UHGV virus genome: UHGV-0228197
Strand: one strand, 5' to 3'
DNA length: 36,878 nucleotides
DNA from: a virus
This document shows, piece by piece, positions 1 to 6,000 of the stretch (position 1 is its first letter; each line of letters begins with the position of its first letter). The position numbers are program-made.

Positions 1-3000
1 ATAGCCCGTCATTTCTGCGCTCACACGTCCCAACATTGAAAAACATGCAAAGCTTTGTAAGCCGATGCAAAGCTTTGTGTGTCTCACTTTTGTCCCAATA
101 CCAATCCGAATCCACCCTTTGTCATCATTGAGAAATGGCAAGGAAGAAAAGGATGTTACTGCACGATTTGACAAATCCGCCAGAGCTATCGCATACTGAT
201 CGCACTGAACAAATAAGCGGTCTCCGCACCCGATAGCTTTGCGGCTTTTTTATGCCTGCAATTTGGCATAGTTACATCCGTACAAAGGTCGGGTGGAGAG
301 GCGTAATACAACACCCGCAAGGGGAATATGCCCAGAGCTTCTTATTTGGCTCAGTTGACACCCGACCGCCAGCTACTAACTGGCGGTTATAAACTAAACA
401 AATAAGGAGGTCATCATGACCAGTCAACTCATCCCCGTATTCAACGGTTCTATCTCAAACCAAGCAGCCCTTCTATGCAATGCTCGCAATCTACACGCTT
501 TCCTTGGGGTTGGTAAACGCTTTGCATCGTGGATAACAGAACGTATTGCTGAATATGGTTTCGTTGAAAATCAGGACTATATGATTGCTTCCCAAATTCG
601 GGAAGCAAAAGGTAGAGGCGGTCACAACCGCAAGGAATACCACCTCACCCTCGACACAGCCAAAGAGCTTGCGATGGTTGACGACTGCGTCCAATACTGA
701 CTATACTCCGCGCCGAGGCCTCGAAAACCTCCCAAAAGCGGATTAAACCAACCCCGTCAGTGTTGGATTTTTTATGCCTGTTATTCAGTGATAGCACAGT
801 GTGCGGTCACATCCCCGATCAATGTCGGGAGGGCGACGAATACAACACCCGCAAGGGGAATAAGTCCGCGGTATCTTTTGGGCCGTTTCGAGCCTCCCGG
901 CACCACATCTTGTGGTGGCATTTCTCGAAAAAAGCCAAAGGAGGTCATCATGACCACTCAACTCATCCCTGTGTTTGAAGGTACAATCTCAAATGAACCT
1001 ACGCTTCTGGTGAACGCGCGTGATTTGCATGGATTTTTAGAGGTAGGTAAAGATTTTTCTAACTGGATACGGGCCAGGCTAAACGAGTATGGATTCGTAG
1101 AAAATTTAGACTACATTCTATTTTCGCCAAATTTGGCGAAAACTCCAGGCCGCCGCCGCAAGGATTACCACCTCACCCTCGACACAGCCAAAGAGCTTGC
1201 GATGGTTGAACGTAACGAAAAAGGCCGCCAGATACGCCGCTACTTCATCGAGTGCGAAAAGAAACTTCGCAACATTCAGCCAGTACAAGCAGAACCACAG
1301 CCGCAATTCACAGCCGAGGAAATCATCCTCCTTTGCTACATGCAGCTCTGGATGGAAAAAGCCCAGGACCTCAGCAAACACCTGTATCCCATCATGAAAG
1401 AGCTGAACTCCTCATACACGAACAAGCTGTATGACATTGCGTTTGAGACCATCTACATGGTGACGAAGAACAGAGATGCGTTACTGAGGGAAGTAACACG
1501 TCTCGACATGTCAAGTTCCGTTATCCAACGAGCCATGCCAATGCTGAAAAGCCTGCGGGCAAGGCAATTCGAATTCTGAAACCAAAGGAGCTTCGGCTCC
1601 TTTTTTCATGCCTGAAGGAAAGGAAAATGGCAGATATCATCGACAATGCCGCTGAAATCGAAGAATTGCAGCGCAATCTCTCCCTGCAAAAATACAAATC
1701 CGATAGTAATGCCCCATCTGCTACTCATTGTTGCGAGTGTGGCGATCCGATAGATGAGCGGCGACGCCTGGCTGTTCGTGGATGCCGAGCTTGCGCCAGT
1801 TGCCAGCAGGATATTGAACTTATCAACAAACAGAGAGGTGTGAAGTGAACATCAACACCACGATAACGATCGATACAGCCCTGAACACCGGCCTGGCGCT
1901 CCTTGGTTATTTCTACATCATGTTCTGCAGCGGACGATGGCTGTCACTGTTGTTCATGAAAAAATGGAATAAACGCCGTAAGCAGGAGCAACGCCAGAAG
2001 GCAATGGATGCATTTTTCGAAGCCTTCGGGATTGACAGCATGGAACCAGGGGATCCAGCTCGCGCAATCAGCAGAGGGGGCGTAGTAATCCTTGTATATC
2101 GGAGTGAAGAGAAAAATGACGATCACAAAACAACGTGTAGAAAAAATCATATATCGCCATGAAATGGGACTGAACAGCGATGTCACTGCCGAAGAGGTTT
2201 ATGACCTGGCTGTACTGGCGCTGAATTTATCAAATATCGCAAACCTGAAGCGATACGAGCTTGATATGGATGGTTGCGACTCGTGCGGTCAGGATTGTGG
2301 CGCAGATATGACTGAAGATCCTGATGGTGATTATGTCCTGTTTGATGACGTGGTTAAGTTGTTTGAGCTTGATACATTCGAAAGCCCAGCAAAGGAGGCA
2401 ACCAGTGAGCAAGATTGATTATCAAAAGCTTCGTGAAATCGCTGAAAAAACAAAAATTGCTGGTGAAGCACCTGTAATGCCTTTCGATCAGCGAATTAAT
2501 GCGCTTAACGATTTTATGAAGCACTTTTCGCCAGATATCGCGCTGGCATTGTTGGATGAGATCAACGCATTAGAGGAAACGCGTATCAACGATGTTTGCC
2601 GTATTGCGGAACTAACAAAACAACTGGAGTTGGCAAAATCAAAACTCAACGAGCAGCGTGAGTATTACGAGGGCGTTATCTCGGATGGAAGTAAGCGCAT
2701 AGCAGAGTTAGAAAGTGATTCTCAGGCACAAAAGTTAGTTGAAGCAATCATTGTTGCGATAGAAAACGAACAGGAACGTCTTTTTGATGAAGATTACCTA
2801 ATGGATTCGAAAGAATGCATTGACGTAATTCGTGAAGAAGTAAAGCGATGGAATGATTCCCGCGCCGCTGGCATTCGCATCAAAGGAGAGTGAGATGACC
2901 ACATCGCATTCTGCAATTACCCAGAAAAAAGCCTTCCACATACTCGAACGATTAGAGGCGCTTGCTACGGAGGAGGAGATATCCCCGGAGAAACTGGTTG

Positions 3001-6000
3001 AGTTCAGCCGTGTGATATTGCGTCGCAAGAACGATATGGAGCGGCTGACATCTGGCGCTCCATCCTTATCAGTCAGGCGAACACTTTGTTGCAGCTTCTG
3101 CAACAAATCCCAGTACGCCGTCAAAAAGTTAATTGCTGGGGACGCCGTTTTCATCTGCGACGAGTGTGTGGATGTGTGCAACAGAATTATCCGGGGAGAG
3201 AAAGAGGGATCAGCATGAAATTTTCCAAATTTTCTGAGTTGGTGAATCGTATTTTGTCCAACAACCACAGCCATCGTCGCGATATGGATGTAACGATCGT
3301 TGTTCATTCGCCTGGTCGCATCGGTTCAACACCATCAGTTGAGGTTCAGTCAATTCAGGCGGGTTTTGATTGGGATGCCGGGAAAGTGATGATTTTTCCA
3401 GCACAGCCACTGATCACGCTAACACCGGAGCAGGTTGCTGATATCACTGATAGTGTGCGCAAAGGTCAGTCTTGGCACGCGTATCAGGAATACAAGAAGC
3501 ATAAAGAGCAGTTGGAAAAATTGTTGATGGAGTTGGAAGCCGCTAAACAGCGGGAAAAAGATCTGTTTATGGAAAATGTTCGACTTAAGTCAGGTATAGC
3601 CGGTCTGATACACCTCGGTATTCGATATGCGGATGTTGAGGTCATGAAAATTGCTGGAGATGCCCAGCTTTCTACTCCATGCACTGACAGCATCATAAAC
3701 AGCATTGCAGCAGGCATTTTCACCAAAGAGGGGGCAGCACGATGAGAACACTAGAGGTTCGCGCTGAAGACGTAATCCCTGGTGATGTGCTCATAACATC
3801 TAAAGGTCAACAATGTGCGGTTAAATCTTTTTGGATGGAAAATGACAAAGTGACTCTGTTCGGTACGGATGGTTCCGAAACTGATTATGACTACGACGAA
3901 TTGCTTGTTATTGAGAGAGCTGCCTAATGACCACCTTTACCAAAGAACAGTTAATCTCCCATGCACGCGAAAGCGTTAGTTATCTGGAAAACTTGAAAGG
4001 ACGTGTTAGCAAAGAAGGTGCGGACTGCAAAGTTGTTATTGAGATGGTTGCACGAGATCTAAAACTGGCACGGATTGCGCTGGCATCGCTGGAAGCAGAT
4101 CCAGTTAAACGAGTTAACTCAGATCAGATGCGCCGAGTCTGCTTAGAAGCTAATCGCCATTTAGATAAATATGACGCGATGGCGAAAGAGGTAAATAAGT
4201 TGCTTGGACGCATCGCCCCGCCAGCGCCGGTAGTGCCGGAAGAAGCAACTCCGGAAAACGTAGAAATGCTCTCTGGCTATGTTTCCACGTACAAATTAAC
4301 CGATAGCGAGCGCGATATTGCTGCCGAAATATGGAACGCCTGCCGCGCCGCCATGCTTCAGTCCGGAAACTTTCGGGAAAATAAAGATTCGTCAACCAAT
4401 AATTTTCGGAAAATCCCGGAAGCGTCAACCAGCTCTCCGGTAACTCCGGATGGTTGGATAAGCTGTAGTGATCGAATGCCAGAAATGGGAGAGCGACAAT
4501 ACTATGTGTTAGCAGCTGACTTTAAAAACAACTACCCACCAAGCATCCCCAACACTCAGGTCGGCGTATATGGCGACTGGTTTAATGATGGCAATCCCAC
4601 TTGGGATGACGGTGATGGCGAAGACCTGCATCTCAAAGAAGTAACCCACTGGATGCCGCTACCAGAACCGCCGAAGGAGGTACGCCAATGACCTAGCCTG
4701 AAGCATTTGCAATTGTAGTGGCTGCCATTTCGATCGCACTGATTGTTTTTGCGATTTGCCGCTGGGGGTAAAATAGTTCACCTGCATGGAGATTTGATGC
4801 CGGGGAATTGTGGGGGAGCATTCAAACCTCTCCCCTTCCCGGTTAAAGACTCCATTGCTTTGCGGTCAGAGAGATACATCAGCTTCATCAGCTTAATGAA
4901 ACGCATAGATCCGCCATGCTTTTTCAGCAAATACGCTGCCATTTGCGCAACTTTTTCTTCATTAAACATAAATCGGCTCTCTGTCTCACATGAAATACTC
5001 TTTCTGACTATATGTTAATAGCTCCGGTTATTACAGGTTAATGTGTGTTTATTTCTTAATCAGCCCCGCACTTCCGTACGGGGCCATTTCTGTTAATCCA
5101 CTCCCACTTTTTTGTTGTACTCGCGGTTAAACCGATCCACGGCAACCTTCATATCCCGCTCTACCGATTTCACCATCGCCGCCTGCTGCGCCAGACTGAG
5201 AGAACTGTCGGCATAAATGGCATCGCGCTGTTTGCGCAAATCCTTCAGTCTCTTCCGGGTATCCTGCATAAGCCCGTTCATCAACAATTTTCCGTTGTTC
5301 TCGTCAATGAACGCCGTTCTTTCTGCACCGGTCAGACTCTTCAGCTCTGCGTGATACTGCGCAACCTCTGTCATCCGGTCGTACATCTTCTGCTGGTCTG
5401 CATACGGCATCACCTCACCCGAAATTTTCCCCAGGAAGGGCACCTGCTGTTCCGGTATATCAATACCATTCAGCGATTTCACCGCCGCATCCGTGGTTTT
5501 GGAAATGAAGCGCCCTGTCCCTCCGGAGATATAGTCAATCCAGAATTTCAGCGATTCCGGTGTGATATCCACCGCGCCGGGACGATACTGGCTGCCACCT
5601 GAGAACGCATTCAGCCAGAATGCAAACGCCTTGTACGCTTCTGGCGTTGAACGTCTTCCCAGCTGGCTGTCAGGTTTTGGTGTACCAAACGGCATGTTCT
5701 CCTGGTAAATCTGCGCCCCCATGAAGTTTTCGTTCATGGCAAGATTCGCAAACGGACGCAGAATTGTCGGTGCTGCATTTTTCAGCAATGCCCCCGACAA
5801 CGTTTCCGACGTCTCGCTGCCGATCGGGCTGAATGCCCCCAGGATACCGCCGACAACATTACCGGCAGCACGTGAAGCAGTCAGGTCGCCCGCTGCCACA
5901 CCTTCAGCTGTATGACCAAGCAGGAAGAACACGTTGTACCCGTAAGGCAGAGGAATACTCCAGTACTCACCGGCCTTGCCCCCGAACATCGATTTCATGA

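Follow-up and report, generated by a model that had tools for sequence, protein, structure and literature searches.

A temperate-phage accessory protein that joins a ClpX-type zinc-binding domain to a family-specific helical hairpin: a candidate modulator of ClpXP

The locus studied here raises the question of what a phage might do with the zinc-binding domain (ZBD) of the host unfoldase ClpX when that domain is not attached to an ATPase. ClpXP governs the stability of lambda O as well as Mu transposition and the turnover of Phd (the P1 antitoxin), sigma-S, and SOS and repressor fragments, and the processes under its control decide the fate of temperate phages, that is replication, silence or plasmid maintenance. 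Analysis of the window, by which we mean the whole 36,878-nt stretch of the viral genome UHGV-0228197, bore out the protein-coding gene that a sequence-only reading had placed at 2895..3218. The gene lies on the plus strand, runs from an ATG at 2895 to a TGA ending at 3218 and encodes 107 amino acids. The start was set at 2895 and not at the in-frame ATG at 2853 because the former is supported by a Shine-Dalgarno sequence, AAGGAG (2883..2888), 6 nt upstream. Homologues begin at the same N-terminus (MTTSH), and the PGAP gene call covers the same 324 nt, an identical gene being annotated in E. coli NCCP15648. The stop codon overlaps the downstream ATG at 3215 as ATGA.

The protein's C-terminal portion resembles ClpX by several comparisons. 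The search with the Pfam zf-C4_ClpX profile (PF06689), which the sequence-only reading had proposed as a check, matched residues 65-100 over profile positions 2-38 of 39 (E 1.3e-15, 57.4 bits), well above the gathering cut-off of 27 bits. Among PDB sequences searched with phmmer, the E. coli ClpX ZBD (2ds5, 1ovx) aligned with residues 62-102 at E 1e-14, 28 of 41 positions being identical. The four cysteines that had been noticed beforehand are arranged as C66-x2-C69-x18-C88-x2-C91 (codons 3090-3092, 3099-3101, 3156-3158 and 3165-3167, plus strand) and are invariant in all 30 aligned members of the family. The phage domain also has SFC.KSQ, KLIAG, ICDECV and CN.IIR in common with ClpX, and these many shared non-ligand residues distinguish it from a generic CxxC knuckle; a likeness confined to such a knuckle, the outcome that would have told against the initial assignment, is also at variance with the structural comparison. 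In the AF2 model the domain consists of strands 79-81 and 86-88 followed by a helix (89-99), and Foldseek superimposed it on 2DS5-2DS8 with an rmsd of 0.5-0.6 A over 38 residues. Judged by sequence and predicted fold, residues 62-102 (3078..3200, plus strand) are a true ClpX zinc-binding domain, which would be expected to bind zinc. The earlier description of the C-terminal 35 residues as a near copy of ClpX was right as to the resemblance, but the ClpX-like part is longer, at about 41 residues, less close, at 68% identity, and followed by a tail of five residues. The absence of an AAA+ module was likewise borne out: in a protein of 107 residues the NCBIfam ClpX models (TIGR00382 / PRK05342) align to the ZBD alone (positions 4-48), their scores of 40-42 bits falling far short of the cut-offs (359-371), and Pfam gives no match for the downstream ORF.

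The N-terminal part is of a different kind. Residues 9-52 (2919..3050, plus strand) are predicted to form a helical hairpin with helices at 10-26 and 31-52, drawn from the AF2 model and alignments A1 and A3, and are followed by a variable linker of low confidence, residues 53-63 (3051..3083). The pLDDT of the hairpin stretch is 72-86 and that of linker residues 56-60 is below 50; the pTM is 0.36, and the model leaves the relative placement of hairpin and ZBD undefined. Residues R19, E21, E26, E27, R44, D47 and L51 are invariant in both A1 and A3, and L20, L23, T25, I29, L34 and K45 are in addition invariant in A1. The hairpin has no relative in PDB or Pfam, and an exhaustive phmmer search with residues 1-63 against 1.84 billion representatives found it only together with a ZBD, so that by sequence comparison it is specific to the family of PHROG 6797. 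Adaptors of the SspB type carry an XB-like ClpX-binding peptide motif, LRVVK / LKxh (PMC7226468). The nearly invariant LRRK at residues 42-45 resembles this motif but lies inside the predicted helix 31-52 and not in a flexible tail.

Within the family the hairpin is conserved more strongly than the ZBD, with mean pairwise identities of 81% for the hairpin, 72% for the ZBD and 62% for the linker. Pairwise dN/dS values, which are based on small counts, ranged from 0.2 to 1.3 for the ZBD, where seven of the nine comparisons with a defined value gave 0.68 or more, and from 0.16 to 0.97 for the N-domain, and the substitution pattern indicates that the N-domain is under purifying selection. The equivalent of ClpX F16, F68, is F in 30 of 30 members and V or I stands at position 98, the equivalent of I46, in 27 of 30, while L12, V24, L27, I28, G30, V33, I35, V40, C43, N44 and I47 of ClpX are also kept in the family. 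The ZBD surface shows systematic changes relative to ClpX, namely P31 to D/E, the acidic residue 23 to A/T and the acidic residue 45 to R/N/S, and one subclade has further changes in the beta-hairpin (K26L, A29T and Y34C in ClpX numbering); given these systematic changes, the ligand specificity of the phage ZBD may differ from that of ClpX.

The family had been catalogued before the present analysis. The protein matches PHROG 6797, of unknown function, end to end (E 2.9e-58, residues 1-106 of 107) and is identical to WP_000213528.1, named 'ClpX C4-type zinc finger protein' by NCBI. Literature searches found no paper characterising a phage protein made of this hairpin and ZBD, in agreement with the initial impression that its function had not been characterised. 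Many family members are mislabelled 'carboxylate--amine ligase' in annotation. About 30 clusters of homologues are 64-97% identical to the 107-aa protein, and the same two-domain architecture, in about 105-120 amino acids, recurs across dozens of clusters whose identity falls as low as 42-50%. Of 5426 complete E. coli genomes, about 220 (about 4%) carry the gene in intact and conserved form, on chromosomes and phage-plasmids. Its carriers are temperate phages of four types, 933W-like lambdoid phages (this window), SSU5-like and P1-like phage-plasmids and P2-like prophages, and at the loci examined its position is always in a mosaic accessory region of the element, as would be expected of a host-manipulation gene. 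The gene is a mobile accessory gene of temperate phages.

In the window the operon head (287..1579, plus strand) is a tandem duplication with a spacing of 534 nt, in which two RNA elements of the sRNA-Xcc1 type (287-375 and 824-909; Rfam RF02221, 69 and 73 bits) each precede an ORF with an AntA domain, one truncated (416..700) and the other encoding the antirepressor Ant (947..1579; Pfam AntA and P22_AR_C). The upstream neighbour in the same operon is an Ead/Ea22-like coiled-coil protein (2324..2893 as the longest ORF, plus strand; PF13935, PHROG 250), whose true start is probably near 2405 since homology begins at residue 29. An Ea22-like gene is found directly upstream in this window and at five other loci (PhiR41_1, D6 and three E. 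coli phage-plasmids), and at a sixth, pF719-4, the position is taken by a gene for a DNA-binding protein. The downstream gene (3215..3745, plus strand, 176 aa) matches PHROG 6026 and has an Ea22-like C-terminus; its product shows no similarity to that of the gene after the P88 homologue, and the downstream gene differs from locus to locus, so that on sequence comparison it is not a conserved partner. No gene for a known ClpXP substrate or adaptor was consistently linked among the loci examined.

We tentatively favour, at somewhat less than an even chance, the reading that the protein imitates the N-domain of ClpX and, by competing for ZBD ligands (SspB, RssB, lambda O, MuA, DksA), alters the targets of ClpXP. 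The C-terminal ZBD would fold and dimerise as in ClpX, and it keeps the hydrophobic pocket at which ClpX docks both adaptors (SspB, RssB, trigger factor) and substrates that depend on the N-domain (lambda O, MuA, DksA). Expressed from an accessory operon of a temperate phage or phage-plasmid, the protein would then compete with the N-domains of ClpX itself for these ligands; the ZBD-dependent branch of ClpXP proteolysis would be selectively slowed, and little would change for direct pore substrates, of which ssrA tags are an example. The hairpin would either join two ZBD dimers, lending avidity for bivalent adaptors, or bind a specific partner. The isolated ClpX ZBD (1-52) folds alone, is stable and binds XB peptides with a KD of 35-82 nM (PMC12373786). 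The action of trigger factor needs the F16/I46 pocket, which overlaps the lambda O site, SspB and RssB bind the same region, and lambda O is not degraded by ClpX lacking the ZBD (PMC7804408); DksA is degraded poorly by such a ClpX (PMC12723719). Since ClpX without its ZBD fails on lambda O and is poor on DksA, a competitor of the N-domain would be substrate-selective. In work by Wojtyra et al. of 2003 and Thibault et al. of 2006, free ZBD supplied in trans reportedly inhibits lambda O, MuA and SspB-stimulated degradation. The recurrence of free-standing ZBDs in unrelated phages also counts in favour of a mimic. Against it stand the lower conservation of the ZBD, its drifting surface, the lack of a linked substrate or adaptor gene and the undefined domain arrangement. 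Moreover, a bare ZBD decoy would be an incomplete description, as the hairpin is family-specific and more conserved than the ZBD, and a pure decoy would not account for the strong conservation of the N-domain's charged surface (R19, E21, E26, E27, R43, R44, D47).

The conserved residues make it plausible that the protein either titrates ZBD ligands or heterodimerises with ClpX. In the latter case the phage ZBD would pair with a ClpX ZBD and plant the hairpin on the hexamer, there recruiting a particular protein of phage or host to be degraded, or blocking the N-domain trimer-of-dimers. The hydrophobic core and the C-terminal helix of the ZBD, nearly as in ClpX, the flexible linker and an N-domain conserved above all other parts, with an invariant surface of charged residues such as a specific binding module should have, are all in keeping with this; no partner gene is conserved alongside, however, and ZBD dimers, being constitutive and stable, would exchange only slowly with assembled ClpX. 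To our knowledge, moreover, the known ClpX adaptors dock via short peptides and not through pairing of ZBDs, and we regard heterodimerisation as improbable. Rather unlikely, but deserving of more weight, is a role independent of ClpX, in which the ZBD would be a zinc-stabilised dimerisation scaffold and the hairpin an effector acting on some other target in host or phage, such as a regulator or a component of defence or counter-defence. A hairpin conserved above the ZBD would fit such a role, as would a ZBD whose surface drifts while core and cysteine ligands stay fixed. Outside ClpX, ZBDs that stand alone or have other fusion partners are common, so that the fold also serves in other settings; among metagenomic ZBD proteins, our reading of the sequences gave some with a second, C-terminal Cys-rich motif or with a tail apparently resembling a helix-turn-helix. 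Yet the F16/I46 pocket and the KLIAG and ICDEC strands are conserved beyond the obvious needs of fold stability, and the N-domain has no detectable relative pointing to another activity.

We consider it quite improbable that the protein is a prophage exclusion or competition factor that blunts N-domain-dependent ClpX in the lysogen and thereby blocks incoming or co-resident phages which need ClpX. The possible victims, with equally slim prospects, would be Mu-type phages, whose transpososome is remodelled by ClpX, and prophages that need clearance of repressor fragments by ClpX(P) to finish induction. In prophages of the P2 type the gene is situated between replication gene A and the portal gene, a site that in P2 holds the exclusion genes tin/old and is known as a defence hotspot, and at one locus it comes after a gene for a Ren-like exclusion protein. 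An exclusion role would also accord with a preprint in which ClpX is reported as essential to complete prophage induction in S. aureus (bioRxiv 10.1101/2022.09.18.507959). However, the protein and its neighbours (nine proteins) matched no defence model of PADLOC-DB 2.0 at E <= 0.01, and the lambdoid and phage-plasmid copies lie in Ea22-type early or antirepressor operons and are not classic lysogen-expressed morons. Some jumbo phages encode a full clpX, so that phage clpX genes are available to decay from, but it is scarcely conceivable that the gene is a decaying, functionless remnant of phage or host clpX: the two-domain architecture is constant across dozens of divergent clusters, the N-domain is under purifying selection, the gene has a good Shine-Dalgarno sequence and translational coupling, no AAA+ debris is found 3' of it, and no DNA-level similarity to host clpX was detected. 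The conservation data effectively refute an origin as a mere clpX remnant.

Returning to mimicry of ClpX, the broader form of this reading, in which a portable decoy or ClpX-pairing mimic, carried by enterobacterial temperate phages and phage-plasmids, reprograms ClpXP targets and the N-domain supplies avidity or target choice, appears to us possible at a little under even chances. The outcomes, held just as tentatively, could include stabilised replication initiators, antitoxins, sigma-S or repressor fragments, and ClpX-dependent rivals such as Mu might be starved. That the hairpin and ZBD protein tampers with ClpXP is plausible but unproven, and forms a testable lead. If true, a phage would for the first time be seen to control an AAA+ protease through a copy of its recognition domain, and mobile elements would have a new route to edit the host degradome, by recognition-domain mimicry and not by enzyme inhibition. 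The protein would also provide a natural, substrate-class-selective ClpXP inhibitor as a tool beside engineered XB-based degraders, and a function for a gene of sequenced E. coli that is carried by Stx-type prophages and common phage-plasmids, among others. If the protein makes no contact with ClpX, the ZBD fold would have been reused as a generic dimerisation module, which would call for caution in annotation.

Compared with the N-domain of ClpX, the phage ZBD has the same predicted fold, cysteine spacing, pocket and core, but is not carried on an AAA+ ring; it is C-terminal, behind an unrelated hairpin, and the family has exchanged P31 for D/E, lost the acidic residues 23 and 45 and varies in surface among its members. 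Phage modulators of host AAA+ proteases include lambda RexB, which stabilises lambda O against ClpXP, lambda CIII (FtsH), T4 PinA and T7 Gp4.5 (Lon) and SPO1 Gp53 (ClpCP). T5 Gp00X drives RpoS to ClpXP (PMC11806420). All of these are small phage accessory proteins, each retuning a single host protease pathway, which is the class of activity proposed here, but none copies the substrate-recognition domain of the protease itself and none is related in sequence to the 107-aa protein. The E. coli anti-adaptors IraD, IraM and IraP sequester RssB so that its substrate escapes ClpXP, and the proposed titration of ZBD ligands would follow the same logic; they differ in having unrelated folds, in being encoded by chromosomal stress-induced genes and in binding RssB rather than imitating ClpX. 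Closest in kind are other phage-encoded ZBDs without an ATPase, namely PHROG 12435 ('protease'), PHROG 5259, an unannotated ORF of Caulobacter phage Cr30 and a 65-aa 'Clp protease' of Pseudomonas phage PP9W2. These uncharacterised proteins of 57-79 aa are ZBD-only and lack the hairpin that defines PHROG 6797, and their presence in Caulobacter and Pseudomonas phages suggests that the strategy of ZBD mimicry may have arisen more than once.

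The gene for the protein with a ClpX-type zinc-binding domain (ZBD) was placed from 2895 (ATG) to 3218 (TGA) on the plus strand, with a deduced product of 107 amino acids. The sequence AAGGAG lies 6 nt upstream of this ATG, the upstream Ea22-like ORF has its stop codon at 2893, and the ATG of the following ORF at 3215 overlaps the stop of the ZBD gene (ATGA), which is therefore translationally coupled within an operon. The in-frame ATG at 2853, which is used by some gene callers and gives a product of 121 aa (protein match P0001), was dropped since it has no ribosome-binding site; this version is also disfavoured because the homologues begin with MTTSH and the RefSeq/PGAP annotation is a gene of 324 nt. 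An ORF of 169 aa on the opposite strand (2798..3307) found no support.

Profile searches indicated that residues 65-100 match the Pfam family zf-C4_ClpX with 57.4 bits (cut-off 27), and a phmmer search of the PDB sequences retrieved the zinc-binding domain of E. coli ClpX (2ds5, 1ovx) at E 1e-14, with 28 of the 41 residues identical between positions 62 and 102. Since the similarity covers the full domain of 39-41 residues, and the identities include the non-ligand stretches SFC.KSQ, KLIAG, ICDECV and CN.IIR, a generic CxxC zinc knuckle was ruled out. The NCBIfam ClpX models matched only over their first ~48 positions (40-42 bits, cut-offs near 360) and therefore no AAA+ module is present. The sequence-only reading had claimed a ClpX zinc finger on a protein devoid of an AAA+ module, and both claims are borne out by these searches, while its description proved incomplete because the N-terminal domain had been overlooked. 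At the domain level the phage protein is a member of PF06689, but without an ATPase it does not qualify as ClpX proper. An AF2 model built from 27 family members (mean pLDDT 74) showed helices at residues 10-26 and 31-52, a disordered linker (pLDDT below 50 at residues 56-60) and then a beta-hairpin and a helix; in Foldseek superpositions, 38 residues of this C-terminal part fitted 2DS5-2DS8 with deviations of 0.5-0.6 A.

Sensitive blastn with the gene matched only 220 of 5426 E. coli genomes and, among the matches listed, never the host clpX; a recent capture of that gene was therefore ruled out. A Y13 and H22 signature like that of gamma-proteobacterial ClpX points to an old ancestry within that group. 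Column-by-column comparison of 30 family sequences with E. coli ClpX and 41 ClpX N-termini (E. coli ClpX numbering) revealed that the four Cys ligands are kept, as are F16 in all 30 sequences, I46 as V or I in 27 of them, and L12, V24, L27, I28, G30, V33, I35, V40, C43, N44 and I47; fold, core and best-documented pocket have therefore been preserved. F16 and I46 line a hydrophobic side pocket of ClpX on which the trigger-factor effect depends; this pocket overlaps the lambda O site and falls within the region to which SspB and RssB bind (PMC7804408). Systematic changes relative to ClpX were found at P31 (D or E), at the acidic residue 23 (A or T), at D45 (R, N, S or E) and at T/S32 (D, A, N or G), and one subclade additionally carries K26L, A29T and Y34C. 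The ZBD surface around the pocket, by contrast, differs from that of ClpX and also varies within the family.

The first 60 residues make up a separate domain. Alignment of 27 members revealed as many invariant positions there as in the ZBD, namely R19, L20, E21, L23, T25, E26, E27, I29, L34, R44, K45, D47 and L51, and the mean pairwise identity within the family is 81% for residues 9-52 versus 72% for the ZBD. Nei-Gojobori estimates from five close alleles, in which the counts are small, gave dN/dS values of 0.16-0.5 and a single value of 0.97 for this N-domain, and of 0.21-1.31 for the ZBD, with seven of the nine defined comparisons at 0.68 or more. Faster evolution of the ZBD (3078-3200) than of the hairpin (2919-3050) is unexpected, the former being almost invariant in ClpX itself, and could reflect either a loosening of constraint or, on the ligand face, an arms race. 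When 1.84 billion representatives were searched exhaustively by phmmer with residues 1-63, nine proteins came back. Eight are hairpin plus ZBD proteins, including members at 42-46% identity, or fragments of them; the exception, protein match P0122 of 650 aa, is repetitive and was judged a chance match. No relative of the N-domain outside the family was found by this search, by Pfam or by a profile search of the PDB sequences. Residues 42-45 form a near-invariant LRRK that is similar to the ZBD-binding motif LKxh/LRVVK (PMC7226468); since it lies within a predicted helix it is a weak lead only.

The operon begins with two genes related to antirepressors. The first, an AntA ORF (416..700, plus strand, 94 aa, PHROG 6904), has the AntA N-terminal domain only and looks like a truncated duplicate of the full antirepressor Ant (947..1579, plus strand), which carries AntA and P22_AR_C. 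About 40 nt upstream of each lies a match on the plus strand to the sRNA-Xcc1-type RNA element (Rfam RF02221, gathering score 53), at 287-375 with 69 bits and at 824-909 with 73 bits; the leader and the 5' end of ant are tandemly duplicated with a spacing of 534 nt. By analogy with c4/immI of P1, these elements may provide RNA-based control of antirepressor expression, and if so the downstream ZBD gene would be governed too. SOS control of the operon was ruled out: the window contains 20 LexA-box matches, but none precedes the antirepressor genes at 416 and 947, and the closest, at 3935, is situated downstream of the ZBD gene. Between Ant and the ZBD gene are a TraR/DksA-type C4 zinc-finger protein (1627..1848, plus strand, 73 aa, PHROG 54), a DUF4752 protein (1845..2162), a PHROG 3126 protein (to 2418) and the Ea22-like protein, and the ZBD gene is followed by a PHROG 6026/Ea22-like protein (3215..3745), a PHROG 15283 protein (3742..3927) and a DUF551 protein (3927..4691). 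The accessory operon converges with an ORF of 2783 aa on the minus strand (5093..13444). In relatives its product carries the annotation LPD38/LPD5 domain-containing protein, and it is typical of Stx phages resembling 933W. At the very tip of the prophage, towards ynfF of the host, the 14-nt sequence ATGCAAAGCTTTGT occurs in two exact copies 20 nt apart (45-58 and 65-78, plus strand), each harbouring the palindrome CAAAGCTTTG; these repeats may represent an operator or a site related to att.

Databases already list the family, as PHROG 6797, of unknown function, and in RefSeq as "ClpX C4-type zinc finger protein", the name used by newer PGAP records. Many older RefSeq/nr records bear the name "carboxylate--amine ligase", which nothing in the sequence backs and which looks like a propagated misannotation. 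The ZBD gene is a mobile accessory gene: blastn matched it in 220 of the 5426 complete E. coli genomes, with 127 chromosomal and 106 plasmid locations, and among the matches listed every one was annotated "ClpX C4-type zinc finger protein" and never clpX. The window itself is a 933W-like Stx-type lambdoid prophage, 84% of which is covered by Shigella phage 75/02 Stx, and E. coli NCCP15648 carries an identical ZBD gene in a similar but non-identical prophage end adjoining ynfF. Family genes also occur in SSU5-like phage-plasmids of ~108 kb (PhiR41_1, CMS-2020a), in the P1-like phage-plasmid D6 and its relatives and, at 50% identity, in P2-like prophages (for example P88 and the UTI89 prophage), where they are flanked by replication gene A, with ParM/ParR, on one side and by the portal gene on the other. 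The genes that follow are unrelated from one context to the next, which rules out a conserved two-gene module such as a toxin-antitoxin pair or a substrate with its adaptor, and since the neighbours vary by locus the protein has no obligate partner. A link between the TraR/DksA-type protein and the ZBD protein is conceivable; the two genes are unlinked in the D6-like and P2-like contexts. PADLOC assigned neither the ZBD protein nor the operon proteins to a known defence system.

Tentatively, and at somewhat less than even probability, we read the ZBD protein as a mimic of the ClpX N-domain that would compete for the ligands of the ClpX ZBD and so selectively damp the N-domain-dependent branch of ClpXP. 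Free ZBD in trans reportedly inhibits the degradation of lambda O and MuA, in work of Wojtyra et al. from 2003 and Thibault et al. from 2006. Removal of the ZBD leaves ClpX unable to degrade lambda O, and MuA also counts among the substrates that bind this domain (PMC7804408); degradation of DksA, a host ClpXP substrate, needs the ClpX N-domain as a tether (PMC12723719), and the ZBD is the docking site for SspB, RssB and trigger factor (PMC7804408, PMC7226468). On its own, the ZBD (ClpX 1-52) is a stable domain with an affinity of 35-82 nM for XB peptides (PMC12373786). Since such substrates and adaptors, and a competent isolated ZBD, are known, mimicry of the N-domain is the most economical explanation, and the N-terminal hairpin might contribute a second specificity or else oligomerisation, which would bring avidity for bivalent adaptors.

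A role independent of ClpX, with the ZBD serving only as a dimerisation scaffold for the conserved N-domain, draws support from the stronger conservation of the N-domain and from the drift of the ZBD surface, and is nevertheless rather unlikely. The sequence-only reading had offered heterodimerisation with ClpX beside titration of its ligands; the protein would then be a phage-supplied adaptor or blocker, which we regard as improbable. Slightly less probable again is that the protein serves lysogens in exclusion or competition, for instance against phages of Mu type that need ClpX; this is suggested by the place of the family gene in P2-like prophages, at the tin/old hotspot. The conservation data effectively exclude a decaying clpX remnant.

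Free-standing ZBDs were also found in unrelated phages, namely in an ORF of Caulobacter phage Cr30, in a 65-aa protein of Pseudomonas phage PP9W2 and in PHROGs 12435 and 5259. The Cr30 ORF is unannotated, codes for up to 79 aa (1522..1761 of the Cr30 DNA piece L010, about 81470-81709 of NC_025422), overlaps the end of the annotated gp169 and spans all of gp170; ClpXP is essential in Caulobacter, and thus a T4-like phage of such a host likewise encodes a ZBD that lacks an ATPase. A distinct family of short bacterial proteins from metagenomes (protein matches P0034, P0036, P0039, P0047, P0051, P0070, P0079-P0081, P0101, P0103, P0104 and P0109) carries an N-terminal ClpX-type ZBD, a linker and a second Cys-rich motif (C.LC…C..C…VE), which in the match P0061 is replaced by a helix-turn-helix-like C-terminal tail; in bacteria too, therefore, the ZBD fold has found uses other than in ClpX. 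A full-text literature search, which is not proof as most subscription journals lie outside its coverage, returned no paper characterising any free-standing phage ZBD.

The family is thus catalogued but unstudied, and the proposed function is plausible and the mode of action would be fairly new. Viewed as a phage strategy, it comes closest to the Ira anti-adaptors and to the small phage modulators of host AAA+ proteases, among them lambda RexB and CIII, T4 PinA, T7 Gp4.5 and SPO1 Gp53. A further such modulator is T5 Gp00X, which drives RpoS into ClpXP (PMC11806420). None of RexB, CIII, PinA, Gp4.5, Gp53, Gp00X or the Ira anti-adaptors is known to copy the protease's own recognition domain.
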